Positions 13,570-31,870 of a stretch of 64,000 nucleotides of DNA are shown in pieces (positions within the stretch are counted from its first letter, which is position 1; every line of letters begins with the position of its first letter). Location: the NCBI GenBank assembly GCA_022979955.1, contig GCA_022979955.1_3642.1. One strand, given 5' to 3'. The DNA comes from a phage. Position numbers and translations under genes: made by a program. The notes beneath the pieces were generated by a model that was given only the letters and a program-made list of their open reading frames with translations, had not been told where the DNA came from and searched no databases.

Positions 13570-14775
13570 ATGATTTTCATCTACGAACATTTCAAAACTC
13601 GTAAAGAAGCACGCGACCGCCGTGCAGAACTTGAGAAGAAAGGTTTCACATGTGCCATTGAGAAAGGTGACACAACCTGGACACTGGCAGTGGGTGCCCC
13701 AGAATTGTTCGATCCTGACCGTGACAGCGTCTGCTACACCCGTGAGGATTTTGAAACCCGTGAAGAGGCCCGTCTATTTCGATATGGGCTGGAAGATAAC
13801 GGTAAGTACGCCATGATCTTAGACTTAGGCGAAGGTTCCGTTAAACGTTGGGGCGTGATATACCCACTGTGTGTTGTTCACGGTGTGGGGTTTACTGGGG
13901 TAGCAATCAAGTCAGAAGAACCTTTAGTAGAAGTCAAAGATCCGGTGCTGGAAGTGGTGAGCAGTGTGTCTCAGCAACAGACTCGAAGCATCGAGCCTTT
14001 GGTAGTTATTTGCGGGGAACTCCTCCAGATCACCTGCAACGAAGGAATTTTTGAAATTCGCCGCAGCGAAAGTGAGGAAGTTTACCAGAAAGTCTTCGAC
14101 CATATCTCTGTTCAGGAATATGATGAGGCAATTGGTGAAATCCTTGTCTGGCTGGAACGCAAGAATGAGTTCACCACACTTGCAGACAACCTGATCATGA
14201 AAGATGGTAAGCTCTACTACTACGGTGTAGAGATGCGATCCACCATTGCAAAGAAAATTGAGAAAGATTATGCAGACGGAACGCTGGATGACCGCTATGT
14301 GAAATTCCTCGTTCGCCTGCTACGCAATCCTTCTGCAAAATCTGTAAACATGCTCTACGATTTTATGCAGGCCAATGATATTCAGATTGCAGAAGATGGT
14401 CGAATCATTTGCTACAAAGGGGTTCAGTTTAACGGCAGCAAGTGGGTGGATTGGCACAGTGGTAAAGTTCCACAATACCAGGGTGCTTTTGTATCCATGC
14501 CTCGTAACTTTGTAGAGGATGATCCGGAAGCTGCGTGCTCCTATGGCTTACACTGCGCCAGCAAAGAGTATGCAAAGAGCTACGGCACTGTAATGACTGT
14601 TATGGTTGATCCTGCAGATGTGGTTAGTGTGCCATACCAACACAATAGCGCTAAGTGCCGTGCATGCCGCTATGAGATTGTGGTAGCTCCGGAAGCACGC
14701 AAGGACGGAGACCCGATTGAATACGTGGTTGACCGAGACGGTAACACTATCGACATTCTTTACGAGGAGGCGTAA
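13570..14775 (+). CDS. rIIB: rIIB-like protein
   Basis: C-terminal region (GLHCASK, DVVSVP, AKCRACRYEIV) resembles T4 rIIB as recalled; adjacent to rIIA-like gene. Confidence 0.55.
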   Translation: MIFIYEHFKTRKEARDRRAELEKKGFTCAIEKGDTTWTLAVGAPELFDPDRDSVCYTREDFETREEARLFRYGLEDNGKYAMILDLGEGSVKRWGVIYPLCVVHGVGFTGVAIKSEEPLVEVKDPVLEVVSSVSQQQTRSIEPLVVICGELLQITCNEGIFEIRRSESEEVYQKVFDHISVQEYDEAIGEILVWLERKNEFTTLADNLIMKDGKLYYYGVEMRSTIAKKIEKDYADGTLDDRYVKFLVRLLRNPSAKSVNMLYDFMQANDIQIAEDGRIICYKGVQFNGSKWVDWHSGKVPQYQGAFVSMPRNFVEDDPEAACSYGLHCASKEYAKSYGTVMTVMVDPADVVSVPYQHNSAKCRACRYEIVVAPEARKDGDPIEYVVDRDGNTIDILYEEA

Positions 14776-16145
14776 TGGAAAAAGGGCAGTATGATGTAGG
14801 CACAGATGCTGCCCTTGTTGCAATCATGAGTGGGGAGAATGTCTTCGTTTCAGGACCCGCAGGTTGTGGGAAGACGTACCTCATCAACATGATCCAGTCA
14901 ATGTATGGAGACTCTTGCATAACGGTTGCCCCGACAGGGGTAGCCGCTTTAAACGTTAATGGAGCAACAGCACACCGAACCTTCGATCTTGCAGCAGGTG
15001 TGAGCATGGAGTCTGACTGGACTGCAATAAGGGCAAAAACAGCAAAGCCTTTGAAAAGCAAGGCATTTACCATCCTAATTATCGATGAAATCTCTATGAT
15101 CCGTGCTGATAAGTTTATAGAGATGGATAGGAAACTCCGCTTCCTTCGAAAAAATGACAAACCTTTCGGAGGCATACAGGTCATATTGTTTGGCGATTTT
15201 TACCAGGCACCTCCTGTTGTCTCTTCTATGGAGAAGGAGGCCTACTTCAACTTCTACCACACAGACCTGTGTTGCTATACCGAATCTTGGAAAGAGCTGG
15301 ACCTTCACAACATAGCCCTAATAGACCAGTTCCGACAGGAGTCTATTCGATTTGCCACAATGCTCAACTGTGTTCGTGAGGGTCGTCGCATAAAAGAGGT
15401 TGTAGCAGAACTTAATGCTCGCTGTTACAAAGGCGGTGTACCAACAGACGCTCTCACAATTTGCGCCACCAACAAACAAGCAGAGGAAGTGAACAGAAGG
15501 TTCTATGATGCCATCAACGCCCCAGAGAAGGTATACACTGGTGAAATGAAGGGTAAGTTTCCCTCCACCCTGCCAGTTGAGCAGGAGATGAAGTTGAAAA
15601 TTGGCATGAAAGTTATGATAACCGCCAACGATGTTGACCCGACGCACAAAGTACCTTATTATGTTAACGGAACACGTGCCACAATTGTTAAATTTAAGAA
15701 CAAGGCGGTGGTGGTAGAGCTTGAAGATGGAACACAGGTTGACATAGAGCAGAGGTTGTGGGAAAATAACGAGTATAAGCCATCTCAGAGATACAACATT
15801 GCAGAAAGGAAGATGGAGAAGTTTATAGAGAGGGTAGTGATTGGGTCATACAGGCAACTTCCTCTGAAATCTGGGTATGCCGTAACATCTCATAAAAGTC
15901 AAGGACTTACGCTAGATTGTTACAACCTGGACCTTGGAAAGAACGGAGCTTTCTCTCCTGGGATGACGTATGTTGCTTTGAGTCGGGTTAAGACAATACA
16001 AGGAATAAACTTGTTGCGTCCACTAAGAGAAGTTGACATTATTGTTGACCCGCGAGTCGTAGAGTTTTACAATACAACATTCCCTGACTTAGACAAAATT
16101 GTCAGGAAAGATTTTGAAACCAGAGCCGAAGAGGGGGACGTATGA
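14775..16145 (+). CDS. dda: Dda/PIF1/RecD-like 5'-3' DNA helicase
   Basis: Walker A SGPAGCGKT, Walker B IIDEISM, GDFYQAPPV motif, TSHKSQGLT motif near C-terminus. Confidence 0.8.
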   Translation: MEKGQYDVGTDAALVAIMSGENVFVSGPAGCGKTYLINMIQSMYGDSCITVAPTGVAALNVNGATAHRTFDLAAGVSMESDWTAIRAKTAKPLKSKAFTILIIDEISMIRADKFIEMDRKLRFLRKNDKPFGGIQVILFGDFYQAPPVVSSMEKEAYFNFYHTDLCCYTESWKELDLHNIALIDQFRQESIRFATMLNCVREGRRIKEVVAELNARCYKGGVPTDALTICATNKQAEEVNRRFYDAINAPEKVYTGEMKGKFPSTLPVEQEMKLKIGMKVMITANDVDPTHKVPYYVNGTRATIVKFKNKAVVVELEDGTQVDIEQRLWENNEYKPSQRYNIAERKMEKFIERVVIGSYRQLPLKSGYAVTSHKSQGLTLDCYNLDLGKNGAFSPGMTYVALSRVKTIQGINLLRPLREVDIIVDPRVVEFYNTTFPDLDKIVRKDFETRAEEGDV

Positions 16146-19133: not shown

Positions 19134-19895
19134 TTGAAATTTATCTACAAAGAACACTACCACAAAGGTGTTGTGTGGAGCCTATTTGACGGATCTGGTG
19201 GTGCAGTCATTGACTGGGCAAAAGCTGGATATCTGTGCCTGTGCTTTAACGCAGAAGGTGCTGACCACGGCAGTTATGCAGAGGTGATCACCGATCATCC
19301 AAATATTCACTATGTAGATTATTGGATTGATCCATGGTTCCCTCAGGAAACTTTCTGCATGTACCCAGCTCCGGACTTTGTTCTTGCATTTCCTCCGTGC
19401 ACCCACTTAGCGGTGTCAGGTGCTGCACACTTTAAGAAGAAGCTGGCTAAGGACCCGTTGATCCAGATTAATGCTGTAAAGGATGCTCGGGTTGCAGAAG
19501 AGTTGGGAGAGATTTACGATTGCCCGTGGCATGTAGAGAATCCTGTGGGTGTTATGTCCACACTGTGGCGCAAACCTGATTACCGTTTTCACCCTTCTGA
19601 CTATGGCGGGTATTTACCGGAGGATGATGTAAACCCCTGGTTTCCTGAATTTATAGCTCCACGTGATGCCTATCCAAAAATAACTTGCGGCTGGATAGGT
19701 AATGGATTTATAATCCCGGCCACAAAACCTGTCCCGCAAATAGTTGACGCGGTTAGCGGGTATTCCATGCAACACGCCAAGCTGGGTGGAAAGAGTGCAA
19801 GAACGAAGATGATCCGAAGCCTCACACCACGTGGCTGGGCAAAAGCCGTATTCTTAGCAAACGAGCCTGCAGTAAGGAGAAGGGCAAATGGTTGA
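19134..19895 (+). CDS. C5-cytosine methyltransferase-like protein (short, PCT variant)
   Basis: TTG start 7 nt after AGGAGA; motif I FDGSGG, motif IV PPCT (in place of PCQ), motif VI-like HVENPVG. Confidence 0.55.
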   Translation: MKFIYKEHYHKGVVWSLFDGSGGAVIDWAKAGYLCLCFNAEGADHGSYAEVITDHPNIHYVDYWIDPWFPQETFCMYPAPDFVLAFPPCTHLAVSGAAHFKKKLAKDPLIQINAVKDARVAEELGEIYDCPWHVENPVGVMSTLWRKPDYRFHPSDYGGYLPEDDVNPWFPEFIAPRDAYPKITCGWIGNGFIIPATKPVPQIVDAVSGYSMQHAKLGGKSARTKMIRSLTPRGWAKAVFLANEPAVRRRANG

Positions 19896-20559
19896 CTGGA
19901 GCAAGTATTTCACCTATAGCGACGGCAAACTGTTCTGGGCGTATACCGCAAAAGCCGGAAGGGGTAGGATCATACATTACGCAGGTGAGGAGGCCACAGG
20001 CACAGATAAAGATGGCTATAGAGTAATAAATGTGTCAGGTGTTGGAAGTGTTCGTAGGCACAGAATAATTTGGGAGATGCATTACGGAGAGATACCTGAA
20101 GGTCTTGTTGTTCGGCACAAGAACGACATAGCAGGGGACGACAGGATAGAGAACCTAATCCTGGGGACACAAGGTGATAATGCACGAGACATGATCTACA
20201 GTGACAAGCTAAACATTAACAATACCTCAGGGTATCGTGGCGTGCGCTATCATAGAGGTATAAAAAGATGGACTGCATCTGCTGGAGACATATACTTAGG
20301 GTGTTTTAAGACAAAAGAGGATGCAATTGCATGCAGAAAGTTATGGGAGAAAGGAAAATTCGTCCCGCAAGAATTAGATGTTAGAAACACTAGCGGTGTA
20401 ACAGGGGTGTTCTATGTGCCGAGCTCTGGAAGGTGGAGAGTCCGAGTGCAAAGCGGCAAAAAGAGAAAGAGCTATGGCACTTACAACACTTTAGAAGAAG
20501 CAAAAGCTGTAAGGGATAAAGTGATGAAAGAGATTGAGGAGTTTAAAGATGGGGAATAA
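19888..20559 (+). CDS. HNH homing endonuclease with AP2 DNA-binding domains
   Basis: HNH region RRHRIIWEMHYG...VRHKNDIAGDDRIENL; two AP2-like repeats (SGYRGVRYH...GCFKTKEDA and SGVTGVFYV...YNTLEEA). Confidence 0.75.
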   Translation: MVDWSKYFTYSDGKLFWAYTAKAGRGRIIHYAGEEATGTDKDGYRVINVSGVGSVRRHRIIWEMHYGEIPEGLVVRHKNDIAGDDRIENLILGTQGDNARDMIYSDKLNINNTSGYRGVRYHRGIKRWTASAGDIYLGCFKTKEDAIACRKLWEKGKFVPQELDVRNTSGVTGVFYVPSSGRWRVRVQSGKKRKSYGTYNTLEEAKAVRDKVMKEIEEFKDGE

Positions 20560-22627
20560 GTTTATACCCTCTGCATATAGCCGCTATGGAGAACCTAACC
20601 CAGTTGCAACAAGATACAAAAGCGGAGGTAGTATGAAACGAGACTATCGCGATGAAAAAGAGGTTGAAACTGTAGAGACCGTTTTAGAAAATACTAAAAT
20701 TGTCCCTGTCCCACAACAAAATATCGGTCTGATGGCTGCACAATATTTTGGTGTGCGATCAGCATTGTCCCAAGAGGACGGTGTGACAGTAACTGCAACA
20801 TATTTCCCATATTACGACCGCTACGGAAATCTATCTGGCTTTAAAAAGCGTGATTGGTCTAAGCCAAAAGAGCAGAAAGGGCACTGGTCTGTAGTGGGCA
20901 TAGTAAAGGCTAACTCCCAGATGTTTGGTCAAAAGCTGTGTGCATCTTCCAACAACCGTAAGCAGATTAATGTTTGTGAGGGAGAAGGTGATGTTATTGC
21001 AGCATGGCAGGCTGCATATCAAATACAAGTAAAAGGGATTCTCACCAACGCTAAAGCCCCGGCAAAGGTGAAACAGTGGGCTAAAGAGGTCCAGGACGGG
21101 ATCGATGCAGTTATCAACGGGGGTGATTTGGCAGGAAAACCCTGCCTGCCTTTTGTTGGAATTAACTGTGGATGTGCAAACGCAGTAGATACTTTTGCAA
21201 ACAATGAGAAATTTATCCGTAGCTACGGAACAGTGGTCCTTGCAATGGACAACGATGCGGCTAACGAGGTAGAGAAGCAAAAACACGTTATAAAAGGTGT
21301 TGAAGCCACACATAATATTGCAGCATTTTTGATGGCTGACAACGTTTACCACGTGGAATATCCTGGCGAGGTAAACGACCCTGATGGTGTAAAAGATATC
21401 CGTGACATGCTGAAGGCTAAAAAGCTGGAAGATATTGTAAACATGTTCCGGCATCCTGTTAAGTATGTGCCTGATGCTGTGTCGGATTTAGAAGACTTCT
21501 CTATCGAATCTTTGCGGAAAAAGACTTCCAACGGGGTAGATATCAGCGCAGAGTTTCCAAAACTGCAAAAAATGCTAAAAGGCTTGCACAAAGGGACACT
21601 CGTAATGCTTACAGGTCCATCAGGAGGTGGTAAAACAACTGTAGCCAAAAAACTGGAACACTGTATTGCAAGATACCTAATGGACCCGACATGTCCAAAG
21701 GCCGATGACTACGAAGAGGATGATCGTCTATGCATGATTCATCTTGAGGAGGACCCAGAGGAAGCAATTAACTCCTTGTATGCAAACCAGTTAGGGTTTG
21801 ATGTTAAAGAGTTTGTTGAAGATCCTAGCCAGTTTTTAACTGATCAAGAACATGCAGAGATTCACCAATCATGGGCAAAAGCTGGAAAAATCAAAGTGTT
21901 CAAACATTTCGGGTCTATTCCAGTGGACGAGTTGATTACCAAGCTTAAGCAAATGGTCTGCCTGTACCATTGTCGCTATATTGTGCTGGATCACCTGTCT
22001 ATGGTAATTTCAGGGCTTAATGTTAAAGATGAGCGAAAAGAACTGGACATGGCTATGACTCAGCTGGCTGCGTTTTGTAAGCAGTTTAACGTGTTTATCT
22101 TGGTGATCGCTCACCTCAAACGTACAGAGATTGTGCCTCCTAAGGACAAGGATGGTAACCCATTACCTTTCTGGTATCCTGTGCGAAAAGAGAATTTGCG
22201 AGGATCGGCTGGGCTTGAACAGTTGAGTTGGGTAGTCATAGGTGTCGAGGCCGAAGAAATGGTGGATCGTTCTCGTGGACGTGTCCGTCTGGTAGGTCTT
22301 AAAAACCGTCCAGCAAAAACTCTAGGTATTGCTGACACTTTGGTTATGGACCCGCACACAGGTAAGTTCCATGATGCCAGTAATTGGTACTGGGACAAAG
22401 AAATGCAAATGTTTACAGACGGAGAAGGTGGGGAGGTTGTTTGGAGACCTCAGGCTATGTTTGAGGATCAGGAGCATGCAGTTGTAGAAACACCTATGGG
22501 CAAGGTTGTGGCTGATAAGGTTGTAACTCCTACTGTTAAGCCTGTTGACACGCAGGAAGACCTCCAGTACGATGATCCATCCTCTGACCCGGTCCCTGGT
22601 TTTGAGGATGATGAAACGCCTTTTTAA
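20549..22627 (+). CDS. DNA primase-helicase (TOPRIM + DnaB-like)
   Basis: ATG 7 nt after GAGGAG; TOPRIM motifs CEGEGD and MDNDAA in N-terminal half; helicase Walker A GPSGGGKT and Walker B-like VLDHLS in C-terminal half. Confidence 0.8.
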   Translation: MGNKFIPSAYSRYGEPNPVATRYKSGGSMKRDYRDEKEVETVETVLENTKIVPVPQQNIGLMAAQYFGVRSALSQEDGVTVTATYFPYYDRYGNLSGFKKRDWSKPKEQKGHWSVVGIVKANSQMFGQKLCASSNNRKQINVCEGEGDVIAAWQAAYQIQVKGILTNAKAPAKVKQWAKEVQDGIDAVINGGDLAGKPCLPFVGINCGCANAVDTFANNEKFIRSYGTVVLAMDNDAANEVEKQKHVIKGVEATHNIAAFLMADNVYHVEYPGEVNDPDGVKDIRDMLKAKKLEDIVNMFRHPVKYVPDAVSDLEDFSIESLRKKTSNGVDISAEFPKLQKMLKGLHKGTLVMLTGPSGGGKTTVAKKLEHCIARYLMDPTCPKADDYEEDDRLCMIHLEEDPEEAINSLYANQLGFDVKEFVEDPSQFLTDQEHAEIHQSWAKAGKIKVFKHFGSIPVDELITKLKQMVCLYHCRYIVLDHLSMVISGLNVKDERKELDMAMTQLAAFCKQFNVFILVIAHLKRTEIVPPKDKDGNPLPFWYPVRKENLRGSAGLEQLSWVVIGVEAEEMVDRSRGRVRLVGLKNRPAKTLGIADTLVMDPHTGKFHDASNWYWDKEMQMFTDGEGGEVVWRPQAMFEDQEHAVVETPMGKVVADKVVTPTVKPVDTQEDLQYDDPSSDPVPGFEDDETPF

Positions 22628-22685: not shown

Positions 22686-25049
22686 ATGAGTATGTGGTCT
22701 TTCGATTTTGAGTCATCCGGTTTGCTGGAAGACCCAGATCTTTATTATCACTGCGGTCTGTTTAAAGAGCTGAATAAGAACCGTTTTATGCTGTTCCTTC
22801 CTCTAAATGACCGCACACACTACTCCGAGGAGGATATAGAAAAGGCTAAGAACTTCATTCTGGCAAAGAAAACTCTTTATAAAGATTTTGAAGTTCGCAT
22901 AGCAGATTTTTCGGAGTTGGAAGGTTGGCTTACAGGCAATTCTGACTGGTCACCAACAGCTTTGAACTGCCATAACTGCTACAGTTATGACTTTATGCTG
23001 ATGGAAAGATTATCCGGTATTCATTTTGACATGTTCCGTGATCCTAAATGCATGGGGACTATCAACGACCACCAGGTTAACCTGTTTGATACGTTGGCGA
23101 TGAGTCGAATCTTGTGGCCTGATCGCCCTTTACCAAAAGGTTGTCCGGACTCTGTATTCAACCCGGTCACTAAGAAAATGCAGCCTGTTGGTCCTCACGG
23201 CCTTATGGCATGGGGCTATGCTCTTGGTAACCAGAAAGTTCAAATTGATGACTGGCGCGATCTTCCGTTATGGAAGTATGTGGATCGTGTATTTGAGGAC
23301 GTTATCATCCAGGAGCTGCTCTGGAAAGAACTGGTAGCGGAATCAAAAGGTGTATTCTACGGCAAGTCTGACATGCAGAACTTTATGTACGATCCTGCCA
23401 AAGAGAAGCCGAAAGGGTTCAAGAAGATCACCTGGAAGAACGCACTACGCCGAGGCATGCTGCAGCACTTCCTGATGGAGCTGCAGGCCCGTCAGGGTGT
23501 GTATTTTGACATAGATGGAGCTATTGCTTTACGTGACCGTTGTGATGCGTGGATGAAAGAAATAGCTGATCGTGTTGAACCACAACTACCTTTAAAAGAG
23601 CTGTCAATGTCTCAGCGGCCCAAGTTCCCTGAAAAGCCGTTTAACCAAGATGGGACAATCTCCAATAATGGTTGGAAATGGTTAAAAGATAAGCTTGGCT
23701 ATCCTGTAGACATGAGCGCTTTAGAGTTCAAAGCCCCGCCTAAGCGAGCATTTACCTCCACAGGAGATGTCAGTAAGATGGGGATAAAATGGTGTGAAGA
23801 GATGGGCTGCAAAGACCCTGATAAGATGGCTGATTTCTTGAGAGGCTATATTAAGGGCACTTCCACACCACAACCTTTACCTAAAGAGCTGATGGATCAG
23901 GCAATAAGTGATCTACAGCAGAAGCGAATGCCGGACTGCAAGATACCTATGAAAATCAGCAATCAGGACGACATTAAGCGATACCTGATCAGTGCTGGTT
24001 GGCTTCCGACAATGTGGAGAACTAAGGATGTAACTAAAGACAGCAAGAAGAAAGCTCTACCTGATGCAGATGTTGATGCACGAGTATATGCATATATGGA
24101 CGAGCTTTTAGAGTCAGAGTATTGTGACCTGATTATCAACTTCTGGAACAAAACTGATGCTAAGTTCCAGACAACCGTGCACAAGTTCCGAAGCTTTCCT
24201 AACTCCGAAAGGATTAAAAAGGAAGTATTCGGGAAAATACGTAGAAAAGCTAGGGCACTTATTACTTCTCCGCAACTGAAAGATACGTTTGGACACCTAT
24301 GCCCTAATCTTGAAAAATTGAACGGAGAGATGGCTAAAGATATCGTCTTGTGGTTATCATTGCGAAACCGCAGATCGGTCCTTGATCCAATCAAGGAGGA
24401 TAAGGTTGATACTGGTCTTCTTAATCACCCACGTTTGAAGATTGACCATAAGCTTCCTGCTAAAAGTTCTGGATTAACAAACACTTCCCGACAGAAACAC
24501 AGTATTTGTGCAAACATGCCTAAACCATCTCCTAAAGTGGTTATGGGTAAAGAGATGCGTAGTCTGTGGGGTGTTCCTCCAGGATACTTTGAGATCGGTA
24601 TTGACGGGTCCAACTTAGAGCAGCTTATCGGGGCTTGGGGTGCCTTTGAGTTCGACAACGGCCTGTATTACGATGTTGTAAGTAACGGAGACGCACACCA
24701 AAACAATGCTGAGGCATATACAAAAGTAGCAGGCAGAGAGGTGTCCCGTAACGACGGTAAACCTATCACGTATGGGGTTATGTACGGAGCACAAAAAGAT
24801 AAAGTTGCAGATATGCTGGACATCTCTCCAGAGTTGGGACAAAGGGTAATCGATGCGCTTTGGGATGCCAACCCTGGTCTTAAGGGCCGTAAAGAGGATC
24901 TGGAGAAATTCTGGGAAGCAACGGGTAAGAAGTTTATCTACTCTTTTGATGGTCATGCCATCTGGACCAGATCTAAACACTCTTTACTTAATGCATACCA
25001 ACAGAATGGTGGTGCATCGCTGTGTGACTTGGTTGGGATACTCATGCAC
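22686..25049 (+). CDS. DNA polymerase family A (T7/Pol I-like), exon 1
   Basis: N-terminal 3'-5' exo motif SFDFESSGL...HCG; motif A-like IDGSNLEQL; motif B RNDGKPITYGVMYGA; reading frame continues to a stop at 25115 inside the putative intron. Confidence 0.7.
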
Positions 25050-25385
25050 CACCAAATGGTGAAGCGTGGGTGGTACGATGAAGGTGTTCGCCGTATTATT
25101 TATTACCATAAATAACATTGTGGCTTCATAGAGTAATCTATGTCGAATAACCTCTTTAACTGCGGGAAGCCTAAACCTTATGGCAAGGTAATCCGCAACG
25201 AAGCGCTCAAAAGAGCGAACGCTCAGAGGCCATTCCGAAAGGAAGTAGACCAGCAAGTGCGGTCGAAATGGGAGGATTCCTGTGGTTGCTTATCATAGGA
25301 ATATGAGATGGTCCGATCCTACGTGAAAACGTATGGCTATGCACGTAATGGTGCGGGGTAGCTTAACGACCTACCTGAACTATTG
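25050..25385 (+). ncRNA. putative group I self-splicing intron, ORF-less
   Basis: 336-nt insert between in-frame polymerase segments; P-like AACUGCGGGAAG (25159-25170), Q-like AAUCCGCAAC (25190-25199), R-like GUAGACCA (25245-25252), S-like GAGAUGGUCC (25305-25314), GNRA-capped hairpin UUCC-GAAA-GGAA; ends in G at 25385; exact junctions uncertain. Confidence 0.5.
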
Positions 25386-25739
25386 GATGAGTACCAACTT
25401 CAAGTGCCTGACACGCCTAAGTATAAGACTGTGTACACCTTCGACACAATTGAAGAACTGGAAGCATTTAAGGCAGAACAGGAGGCCAAACTTCATGTGT
25501 TCGACGGTCATAAGTACAAAAAGGCACGCAAAGATGAGGACGGAAACGAAGTAGTTGACAGGGACGGAAACACGGTGTACGATCCTATCCTGAACGATGA
25601 CGGAAAGCTTGAGCTTATCTGGAGCCCTGTGGGTGAAATGGTGGTGCATTGCTTCTGGCAAGCTTCTAAAATGATGGGAGTCCCGTTCCAGATCACAGGT
25701 GAATACCTGTGTGGTCGTAATTGGGGTGATTGTCACTAA
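25386..25739 (+). CDS. DNA polymerase family A, exon 2 (C-terminal segment)
   Basis: Begins DEYQLQV, which joined to ...GILMH gives motif C LMHDEYQ; ends GRNWGDCH like the T7 DNA polymerase C-terminus as recalled; no SD upstream. Confidence 0.55.
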   Translation, partial: DEYQLQVPDTPKYKTVYTFDTIEELEAFKAEQEAKLHVFDGHKYKKARKDEDGNEVVDRDGNTVYDPILNDDGKLELIWSPVGEMVVHCFWQASKMMGVPFQITGEYLCGRNWGDCH

Positions 25740-28563: not shown

Positions 28564-28929
28564 ATGGAACAAATGAACGATCAAACGTCGGTTGCAATGA
28601 ACGAGCAAGAACAACCTCAAGAATTTTTCTTAGGGTTAAGTAAAGATCAAGTGTCTCTTTTGCTAGTGCTTTCTTCTTTCATGGGAAGACTTCAGGAGCT
28701 CACACAACAACCGGAGGCTGAACAATTATTTCAGGCTCTGCGCGAAGAAGAAAAATATCGTCGTTTGGACTATGCCTTAGGTTGGGTAGCTCAACAACGA
28801 GATATGCTGATGGCTCTCTCTGGGACCACAAGTTTTGCAATGGGCCTGTTGGCTCAAGTTCAGGACAAATTAATTCAGGCAGGGTTTGCACACACGGCAA
28901 ACACTAACGAAGAACAAGGAGACAAATAA
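28564..28929 (+). CDS. hypothetical protein
   Basis: 121-aa ORF with GGAG SD; possible promoter TTGTAA-17-TAAAAT upstream. Confidence 0.45.
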   Translation: MEQMNDQTSVAMNEQEQPQEFFLGLSKDQVSLLLVLSSFMGRLQELTQQPEAEQLFQALREEEKYRRLDYALGWVAQQRDMLMALSGTTSFAMGLLAQVQDKLIQAGFAHTANTNEEQGDK

Positions 28930-30155
28930 TGAGCGTTATTCAACAATTCGCTAACCCGATGAATCCGCGTGAAACTGTTTTACTGGCTCACGGCATGATT
29001 AAACGTGTCAGCATCAAGCCTATCAAAGGTGCTGATCCTACAACAGGTATTAAAACCACTGTGTGGCAAGGTAAGAAAATTGAATCCAGCCACACCATCT
29101 CTTTACTGATTTCTGAACTGGATTCCTCTGATAACCTGCTTCAAGGTGGTGAAGAAGTTTGGATCAGTATGGGTGATAAGCTGCTTAAACCTGGTCATCA
29201 AGACTCTGTCTCTGTTAAAATTGATGACAAGTGGGAAACCGTAACGCCGGGATGGATCGTAAATATCCCTTTGAAGGCAAACGAGCATAACGGTAAGACC
29301 TATTACAAAGGCTCACTAGCTAAGATGGTCAAGCTGGGTGCAGGAGAGGCTCCAGCAGCGACCCAGCAGCAAAAACAGCAACAAGGTGCACAATCACAAG
29401 GCCAGAAGCAGAAACCTCAGCAGAATGCCAATCAGGACGTTTTACGCATCTATGGTGATGTGACTCAGATTGTTGGCAACGTGGTTACTGTCAATGACCA
29501 CAAGATTGGCGAAGGTGCTATGGTTGTCACCGATGAGCAGCTTAAAGATCTGGTGGTAGGTGGTCGTGTTGCAGCCATTGTTGACAAAGACACCGGAAAC
29601 ATTATCAGTGGTTTCAAAGCCTATCCCCCTAAGGCAGAGAACGGCACTCAAGGCTCCGGTGGCAAGCGTAAATCCTCTTACGACCCTATCGGTGTGGAAA
29701 CGGGGCATAGCATCAATGCGTTGCAGATTATCCTGGATCGCGGGTTTAAGGTAGACGACCCCCTAGGCGTGGCTAAAACACTGCACGTAGTCACCATCGA
29801 GCTTAAGAAAGAGTATGCTCAAGCCACCAACCGAACTGAAGATGAAGTAGGTGCCAGTGTCGGTAATGCGGTGTTGAACGCTTGTCGCCGTATTGACAAG
29901 AAAACGAAAGTTGATGATTTTGCAGCGGCAATTACTGCAGAAGCAAAAGATGTCTTGACTAATCTGGCTGAGCCGTTGTACGATTGGATCAAGAACGGTG
30001 CTGGGTCAACTGACCATCAAGAACCTCAGGCTGCCAAACAGGAAGCAGCTCCACAGCAAAACACTGTAGACGCTCCTCCTGTAAATGATGGGGAAGATGA
30101 CCCAATGGATCAGAATCCAGCACAGTACTCCTTTGATGATGACATCCCTTTTTAA
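28929..30155 (+). CDS. putative ssDNA-binding protein with SSB-type C-terminal acidic tip
   Basis: C-terminus ...YSFDDDIPF matches the bacterial SSB tail DDDIPF; Gln-rich linker; sits in replication module. Confidence 0.5.
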   Translation: MSVIQQFANPMNPRETVLLAHGMIKRVSIKPIKGADPTTGIKTTVWQGKKIESSHTISLLISELDSSDNLLQGGEEVWISMGDKLLKPGHQDSVSVKIDDKWETVTPGWIVNIPLKANEHNGKTYYKGSLAKMVKLGAGEAPAATQQQKQQQGAQSQGQKQKPQQNANQDVLRIYGDVTQIVGNVVTVNDHKIGEGAMVVTDEQLKDLVVGGRVAAIVDKDTGNIISGFKAYPPKAENGTQGSGGKRKSSYDPIGVETGHSINALQIILDRGFKVDDPLGVAKTLHVVTIELKKEYAQATNRTEDEVGASVGNAVLNACRRIDKKTKVDDFAAAITAEAKDVLTNLAEPLYDWIKNGAGSTDHQEPQAAKQEAAPQQNTVDAPPVNDGEDDPMDQNPAQYSFDDDIPF

Positions 30156-30171
30156 CAATTAGTTAACATAG

Positions 30172-30199
30172 CCCTGCCCGAAAGGGTGGGGCATTTTTG
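30172..30199 (+). terminator. rho-independent terminator (repeated motif)
   Basis: CCCTGCCC-GAAA-GGGTGGGG hairpin followed by CATTTTTGT; same hairpin as at 19090. Confidence 0.6.
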
Positions 30200-30996: not shown

Positions 30997-31422
30997 ATGA
31001 TCTATGAAATGCCAAAACTGATTCGTGACGATGCCCAAAACGCCCACACCTTTATCATGGGCAAGCGCATGGATATTATTTGTCATAAAGATTTCTGGGA
31101 AGGGAGTTACTTCACGGAATATTTTGGTAAACTGGATAATGGTCTGCTGATCCAGTTCTACACCGATGCGGAAAACAATATCTGCTGGGAGTTCGAAACT
31201 GAAGATATCCATAAACTTTTCACCTTCCTAGGTATTAAGGTTGAGGCCAAGTTCGAAGAAGGTGAGTGCGACGATTGTGGATTCTACGAGGTAACAGATT
31301 TCTATCTCCCAAGTGGTGAGAACCTTTACTATGAAAGCCACTTCGGCAACTCAAATATGCCACAAGGTTGGGATGAGTTTTTTGAAATTGTGGAAGAGGA
31401 GCTGGCATACCGTGATTATTGA
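30997..31422 (+). CDS. hypothetical protein
   Basis: 141-aa acidic ORF. Confidence 0.45.
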   Translation: MIYEMPKLIRDDAQNAHTFIMGKRMDIICHKDFWEGSYFTEYFGKLDNGLLIQFYTDAENNICWEFETEDIHKLFTFLGIKVEAKFEEGECDDCGFYEVTDFYLPSGENLYYESHFGNSNMPQGWDEFFEIVEEELAYRDY

Positions 31423-31870
31423 TACTGTAGAGGGAGATTTAATCTCCCTTTTTAAGAGCGGCGCTGGTCACCTGATCCACGGTTGTAACTGCTTCCACAC
31501 AATGGGCAAGGGGATAGCAAAACAGATTGCCCGTGAGTTCCCTCAAGCATTGGCAGCTGACAAAGAGACCAGACATGGTTGCCTAAGTAAACTGGGTGCG
31601 TTCTCCCGATGGGAGCACTTATCTCCGAGAGGTATTGTCTACGGAATCAATCTGTATACTCAGTTCTACCCAGGACCTAATGCTGAATATTTCTCAATCC
31701 TGAAAGGCTTTGAGCTAGTCAATGAGGTATTCAGTGGATCGACTTTACCATTCTACATCCCTAAGATCGGGTGCGGCATAGGCGGTTTGAAGTGGGAGCA
31801 CGTAGAGGACGTTATTAACCTTGCCACTTTTGATATGGATATTATCGTGGTGGAGTACAAAAAGTGTTGA
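31412..31870 (+). CDS. macro-domain protein (ADP-ribose binding/hydrolase-like)
   Basis: HGCNCFHTMGKGIAKQI and IGCGIGGL resemble the two glycine-rich macro-domain motifs; GTG start after GAGGAG (alternative ATG at 31373). Confidence 0.5.
   Translation: MIIDTVEGDLISLFKSGAGHLIHGCNCFHTMGKGIAKQIAREFPQALAADKETRHGCLSKLGAFSRWEHLSPRGIVYGINLYTQFYPGPNAEYFSILKGFELVNEVFSGSTLPFYIPKIGCGIGGLKWEHVEDVINLATFDMDIIVVEYKKC

Follow-up and report, generated by a model that had tools for sequence, protein, structure and literature searches.

A candidate SSB with a host-type C-terminal tip in rV5-like phages

We propose that rV5-like phages encode a replicative SSB of an uncharacterised family, a 408-aa protein whose tail would dock phage partners, host partners or both. 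This assignment, which we regard as probable, is drawn from predicted folds, conservation of the tail, genome context and the lack of any other SSB. What is claimed is that the protein works like an SSB and not that it is a member of PF00436; membership is not claimed because the sequence models fail, and agreement with the canonical family is limited to the predicted fold and the tail. New here are a conserved helical domain that is an orphan, the combination of two OB folds, a tip of exactly the host type and a polymorphism between capped and uncapped forms. rV5-like, phi92-like and related myophages of ~140-150 kb are in wide use for phage therapy, biocontrol and screens of defence systems (e.g., BASEL Bas48-57). 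The replication machinery of these phages has so far been without an identified SSB, a gap that the assignment would fill. An unrecognised SSB family would also matter for the reading of escape mutants, since phage SSBs are described as known triggers of some anti-phage systems in a preprint (bioRxiv 10.64898/2026.01.26.701840).

Gene, family and predicted domains

The gene lies in a 64,000-nucleotide stretch of phage DNA (GenBank assembly GCA_022979955.1, contig GCA_022979955.1_3642.1), called the window throughout, which is of the rV5-like Vequintavirus (E. coli myophage) type (Table 1). The initial annotation had singled out a 408-aa protein ending in DDDIPF and far longer than a typical SSB. 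Both points are borne out: the ORF and its translation end in ...SFDDDIPF and a stop codon (...NPAQYSFDDDIPF, within the longer stretch ...DQNPAQYSFDDDIPF, then TAA), and the protein is more than twice the length of E. coli SSB (178 aa). The reverse strand across 28929-30155 has stops throughout and is closed to translation. From residue frequencies we estimate that a given C-terminal hexapeptide is expected by chance in ~1 in 10^7-10^8 proteins. Because of this rarity, and because the tip is also kept across the phrog_4477 family, a chance occurrence of DDDIPF at the C-terminus is not credible. A terminator-like hairpin begins 16 nt past the stop codon. On the upstream side, the overlapping phrog_7310 ORF keeps its place next to the gene across Vequintavirinae-type clades (25-29% identity in loci L011 and L013), and its product is a possible partner of the 408-aa protein; phi92-like phages have a different small gene in its place.

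Table 1. Positions of the candidate SSB gene, its predicted domains and associated features (window coordinates unless a locus is named)
Feature	Position	Strand	Residues	Remarks
PIF1-like helicase	14775-16145	+		Pfam and CarlMeissner annotation
gp4-like primase/helicase (DnaB_C)	20534..22627	+		Pfam
Family-A DNA polymerase	22686..25739	+		Exon 1, 22686-25115; exon 2, ~25383-25739
121-aa ORF, phrog_7310 ("unknown function")	28564..28929	+		Stop overlaps the ATG of the 408-aa ORF (ATGA)
408-aa CDS, phrog_4477 member	28929..30155	+		ATG start, TAA stop; ORF listing and translation
N-terminal OB-fold domain, proposed ssDNA-binding core	28929..29345	+	1-139	pLDDT 80-92
Disordered Gln-rich linker	29346..29435	+	140-169	13 Q in 30 residues; pLDDT 25-34, composition
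Small five-stranded beta-barrel, second minimal OB-like domain	29436..29627	+	170-233	pLDDT 82-87
Four-helix bundle, family hallmark	29685..29993	+	253-355	pLDDT 86-96
Disordered acidic tail	29994..30152	+	356-408	pLDDT <50, net charge -11, pI 4.05; aa 362-408 disordered in the model
DDDIPF tip, same as the E. coli SSB-Ct hexapeptide	30135..30152	+		TAA directly after; uncapped allele
Intrinsic-terminator-like hairpin and T-run	30171..30199	+		9-bp stem, 7 GC pairs
Cap at SSB gene 3' ends	L009:6421-6468; L011:3671-3718; L016:1525-1572			Also in L017, L019, L020 and L021

The protein is 99% identical to "hypothetical protein" entries in more than 100 rV5-like E. coli phages. Its counterpart in CarlMeissner/Bas48 is gene bas48_0087, and by position the rV5 counterpart should be gp214. 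Distant homologues at 27-40% identity occur in Seunavirus-, CR3- and phi92-like phages and in other 140-150 kb phages. The match to phrog_4477 is full-length (E 3.1e-173; residues 1-408 against profile positions 1-393), and this group takes in both short and long relatives; it is listed as "unknown function" in PHROGs v4, so that membership merely names the group. When 1.84 billion representatives were searched exhaustively with a profile, only 247 clusters came up, most of them short forms of 260-310 aa. We take the family to be uncharacterised and restricted to phages. Some 20 "Campylobacter phage" records (MG0656xx, host given as C. jejuni) also have the gene, 98-99% identical to that of E. 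coli rV5-like phages, and their host assignment looks doubtful.

Structure prediction, the check proposed with the initial annotation, gave an SSB-type five-stranded OB barrel at the N-terminus in an AlphaFold2 model built on a 27-sequence alignment. This domain is basic (pI 9.1), with conserved aromatic positions H55, W78, W102 and Y126 and conserved basic positions K97 and K123. Judging from its fold, charge and aromatics, it would coat ssDNA at the phage fork. The Gln-rich linker named in the initial annotation is present as QQQKQQQGAQSQGQKQKPQQ (aa 146-166), but it does not adjoin the tail: it lies ~240 residues upstream, as the connection between beta domains one and two. What immediately precedes the tip (aa 356-402) is Q/P/A/E-rich, has a net charge of -11 and is predicted to be disordered. 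Foldseek matched the second, small barrel over 65-71 residues to IF1, RPA14 and the proteasome Rpt OB (prob 0.99-1.0). This barrel is missing from the 260-310 aa short forms (an alignment gap in members P0052-P0056); in the long forms it may assist ssDNA coating on its flexible tether.

The four-helix bundle, modelled alone, reached a pLDDT of 92.6 and a pTM of 0.85. Near-invariant residues (G255, G259-H260, N263, G308, G312) and a VGASVGNAVLNAC motif mark it across the family, and no known structural relative was found for it. We infer a role in self-assembly or partner binding, in which the bundle would drive self-association and cooperativity or touch a phage replisome protein. Canonical SSBs differ in this respect, as it is the 408-aa protein that has a small beta-barrel and a conserved four-helix bundle between the OB fold and the tail. 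Alignment members P0040-P0043, compared with P0033/P0034, have a divergent N-terminal OB domain together with a linker, middle domain and tail near-identical to those of other clades. As judged from the alignment, this mosaicism implies recombination at the disordered linkers.

Sequence comparisons and conservation of the tail

Canonical SSBs (E. coli SSB, bacterial and phage PF00436, TIGR00621) have no detectable sequence homology to the OB domain of the 408-aa protein. Pfam gave no SSB match at E<=10, either to this protein or to any of 112 family members. TIGR00621 scored 12.3 bits against a cut-off of 53.95, from tail positions alone. Likewise, the PHROG SSB families and NCBIfam gave no match beyond the tail, the only part that the curated SSB models reach, and PDB sequence searches with the single protein and with the profile found nothing outside it. 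HHalign of the N-terminal domain against six canonical SSB OB domains returned a non-significant probability of 0.3% (E 0.21), a weak negative given so shallow an SSB profile. Membership of the canonical family (PF00436/TIGR00621), whose models do not recognise the OB domain, is therefore not established by sequence. The SSB-like reading of the initial annotation is partly supported, by predicted folds, tail and genome context, and falls short on the sequence models of the canonical family. Neither a T7 gp2.5-type OB fold nor a match to its family HMM (DUF2815) was found. A literature search on an rV5/Vequintavirus SSB and on SSB-tail mimics returned nothing specific.

An OB fold combined with a helical domain could also belong to a recombination mediator, annealing or helicase-loading factor following RecO-like or PriB/DnaT-like logic. 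Such a protein would act on ssDNA together with host SSB, and its tail would enter it into the SSB interaction network. We consider this quite unlikely. Matches of that kind were generic and ranked under the SSB matches, and Pfam and PHROG gave no recombination-family matches to the 408-aa protein, which has neither a Zn-finger nor an ATPase. Moreover, RecO-type proteins bind the SSB-Ct and do not carry it, and the RecO pattern (family HMM; OB, helical and Zn-binding architecture) was not found here.

The tail, in contrast to the OB domain, has the canonical form of an acidic disordered linker with a C-terminal [DE][DE][DE][IL]PF. In tblastn, residues 140-178 of E. coli SSB align to aa 364-408 (E 0.017), the only match of E. 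coli SSB anywhere in the phage genome. Many family members share the C-terminal 11 residues of E. coli SSB (PPMDFDDDIPF). In 98 out of 150 family representatives the C-terminus is [acidic/polar]-[IVLM]-P-F; many others finish with x-P-F, P-W or D-F, and several of the remainder are truncated fragments. Across 112 diverse members P407 is conserved in 96% and F408 in 95%, while the ~45 residues ahead of the tip, an otherwise unconserved disordered segment, vary freely. The tip is kept down to ~20% identity over ~250 family clusters. As read from these alignments, the tail tip is under selection, because its Pro-Phe is conserved while the remaining tail varies.

The replication module and its acidic tails

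Genes for a PIF1-like helicase, a primase/helicase and a family-A polymerase lie upstream of the 408-aa gene and share its strand. The polymerase matched Pfam DNA_pol_A at E 1.5e-6, under the gathering score, and is also annotated as such in CarlMeissner. This gene order (helicase, then polymerase, a few small ORFs and the phrog_4477 gene) recurs in the phi92-like phage ESCO9 and in KP2025. A Pol A homologue lies 1.5-4.5 kb upstream of the phrog_4477 gene in 9 of 14 diverse loci, the CR3-like phages being excepted. The complete 137.6-kb CarlMeissner annotation lists a ligase, exonucleases, EndoVII, helicases and the polymerase, but no SSB. No other SSB was detectable in the ~137-kb phage genome, and the rV5 genome paper nowhere mentions one.

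A group I intron that contains no ORF (25100-25335; Rfam RF00028, 64.7 bits, E 5.6e-15) splits the polymerase gene of the window and is seen as a 276-bp insertion (25110-25385) relative to CarlMeissner. An HNH_3 and AP2 homing-endonuclease gene (19888-20559) stands between a Dcm-like methyltransferase and the primase/helicase; it is missing there in CarlMeissner, where BLAST leaves a gap from window position 19879 to 20552.

The primase/helicase has an acidic tail of its own, ending in ...GFEDDETPF (22601-22624; C-terminus ...DPVPGFEDDETPF). Its homologues end in acidic-x-PF in 66 of 120 cases and in another aromatic residue after an acidic stretch in 44, so that 110 of 120 are aromatic-ended. 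A genome-wide scan for acidic, aromatic-ended ORFs added only three to the SSB candidate: the primase/helicase, the RNR beta subunit and an ORF of 141 aa. This last ORF (30997-31422) ends in ...EEELAYRDY. The ORF after it (31313-31870) is 185 aa long from an upstream GTG and 152 aa (~31412-31870) in annotated relatives; it (...HGCNCFHTMGKGIAKQI...) looks like a macro domain, with a faint Pfam PF01661 match on the homologue in locus L004.

An acidic Phe-ended tail, a Pol A polymerase and a gp4-like primase/helicase with an acidic aromatic tail of its own make up a T7-like set. T7 likewise combines an SSB (gp2.5) with a family-A polymerase (gp5/thioredoxin) and the gp4 primase/helicase, and in both phages the SSB (a candidate here) and the helicase have acidic Phe-ended C-terminal tails. 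In T7 the polymerase has a front basic patch on which gp4 and gp2.5 both dock through their acidic tails ending in Phe, the last Phe of gp2.5 being indispensable (PMC12339929, references therein). By analogy we infer that the family-A polymerase is the docking target of the acidic tails. The disordered tail of the candidate SSB would offer its free ...DDDIPF-COOH tip to basic and hydrophobic pockets of partners, the first docking candidates being the phage polymerase and the gp4-like primase/helicase. The assignment thus predicts a T7-style replisome, with the tails of helicase and SSB both directed at the family-A polymerase. A precedent for a tail that serves the phage's own machinery is HK620 SSB: this divergent phage SSB requires its last six residues to recruit the phage annealase Sak4 (PMC5928155). 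Unlike the 408-aa protein, that SSB is a recognisable remote SSB homologue (~21-kDa, tip NDYPPF), and rV5-like genomes have neither Sak4 nor any other annealase annotated.

Host proteins may be addressed as well. The E. coli SSB clients chi, ExoI, RecQ, RecO and DnaG have a hydrophobic pocket for the ultimate Phe with basic flanks (PMC3632105). The tip being identical to the host SSB-Ct, E. coli SSB-interacting proteins (chi, PriA, RecQ, ExoI, RecO, DnaG, others) are plausible additional clients. The protein offers a natural setting in which to ask whether an exact match to the host SSB-Ct lets a phage SSB enter the host SSB interactome.

Taken further, the same likeness could make the protein an SSB-Ct decoy or hijacker. 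Many copies of the host tip would then titrate or re-target E. coli SSB-interacting proteins (e.g., ExoI, RecQ, PriA, UDG, chi), so that host replication restart or repair is shut down or phage DNA is protected, and the OB domains would merely localise the protein to ssDNA. Indeed, the tip is the host hexapeptide, many family members match the last 9-11 residues of host SSB, and the SSB clients all use similar pockets (PMC3632105). The likeness also exceeds any phage-internal need, the tail of the phage primase/helicase being merely ...DDETPF. We nonetheless hold this reading to be unlikely: the location in a replication module, the lack of another phage SSB and the conserved OB fold fit a bona fide SSB better, canonical phage SSBs bear the same tip without being decoys, and capped alleles (below) are common and viable. 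The decoy and SSB roles are not mutually exclusive and may coexist.

The C-terminal cap and its endonuclease cassette

Some relatives of the candidate SSB have 15 extra residues past IPF (…DDIPF-APVGLQYGKSRIHAL). The consensus of this cap is A-P-[IV]-G-L-Q-Y-x4-[IL]-[HY]-x-[IL], and its length is nearly always exactly 15 aa. In rV5-type phages a ~620-bp insertion begins exactly past the IPF codons (4228-4867 in L004, an rV5-type metagenomic contig; the site is window position 30153). It encodes a 207-aa Cys-rich, Zn-finger/HNH-like protein that matches phrog_1035 ("endonuclease VII"/HNH) at E 6e-40, with its start codon within the 15-aa extension. The cassette is found in 52 phage records, as against 116 rV5-like records. 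Carriers include rV5 and the cultured phages Bas49, JES2013 and ECML-10, and a 423-aa form is annotated in the last three. The window holds the uncapped, endonuclease-free allele with a candidate cassette target (...GATGATGACATCCCTTTTTAACA...), and the terminator-like hairpin is kept downstream of the insertion in relatives. Bas48 is likewise uncapped. Endonucleases related to this one take up the equivalent place after SSB genes of unrelated type (morffagbaw), and also in P0050, a distant clade (L013).

The cap also follows DDDIPF on phage SSBs whose cores belong to at least four unrelated types, frequently without a nearby endonuclease. It is seen on canonical E. coli-type SSBs of lambdoid, Vibrio and Hafnia phages (mEp235, ECP1, V039C, Pocitis76, 1.243.O), on the non-canonical SSBs of morffagbaw and Torfinnsbu, and, with the endonuclease absent, on phi92-like phrog_4477 members and likewise on P0048. 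In endonuclease-free loci its conserved A, P, G, L and H use different synonymous codons, and for this reason the cap peptide itself appears to be selected. A mere by-product or scar of endonuclease insertion is thus insufficient to account for it, given the caps without an endonuclease (phi92-like phages, P0048, several canonical SSBs), the constant 15 aa and the synonymous codons. The searchable literature held no description of the cap peptide strings or of the endonuclease at ssb 3' ends.

We tentatively raise the possibility that the cap is a functional mobile C-terminal module that switches or masks the SSB tip, and that the candidate, with its orphan bundle, represents a new SSB family with a regulated tip. 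The module would often be delivered by a Zn-finger/HNH homing endonuclease. Loss of the free carboxylate could shift partner recruitment, introduce a degron or shield the tip from host factors, and the gene would toggle between capped and uncapped forms in nature, the window representing the uncapped state. The conserved helical domain and the endonuclease-associated cap would provide new handles on SSB-tip regulation.

With the cap in place the terminal Phe no longer has a free carboxylate, and a free tip therefore cannot be essential for viability. This dispensability, the alignment of the tail region with E. coli SSB and the mosaic family with N-domain swaps such as those in P0040-P0043 would also suit a recent or neutral appendage, acquired for example by recombination with an ssb gene, on a functionally unrelated protein. 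We judge this very improbable, as retention of the tip at such low identity across the family, next to a variable remaining tail, is a signature of selection.

Capping extends to the tail of a helicase as well: the primase/helicase of Klebsiella phage K54_rec5 ends in …DDDTPF-APIGLQYAKHAIYVI and is followed by an HNH endonuclease (L015).
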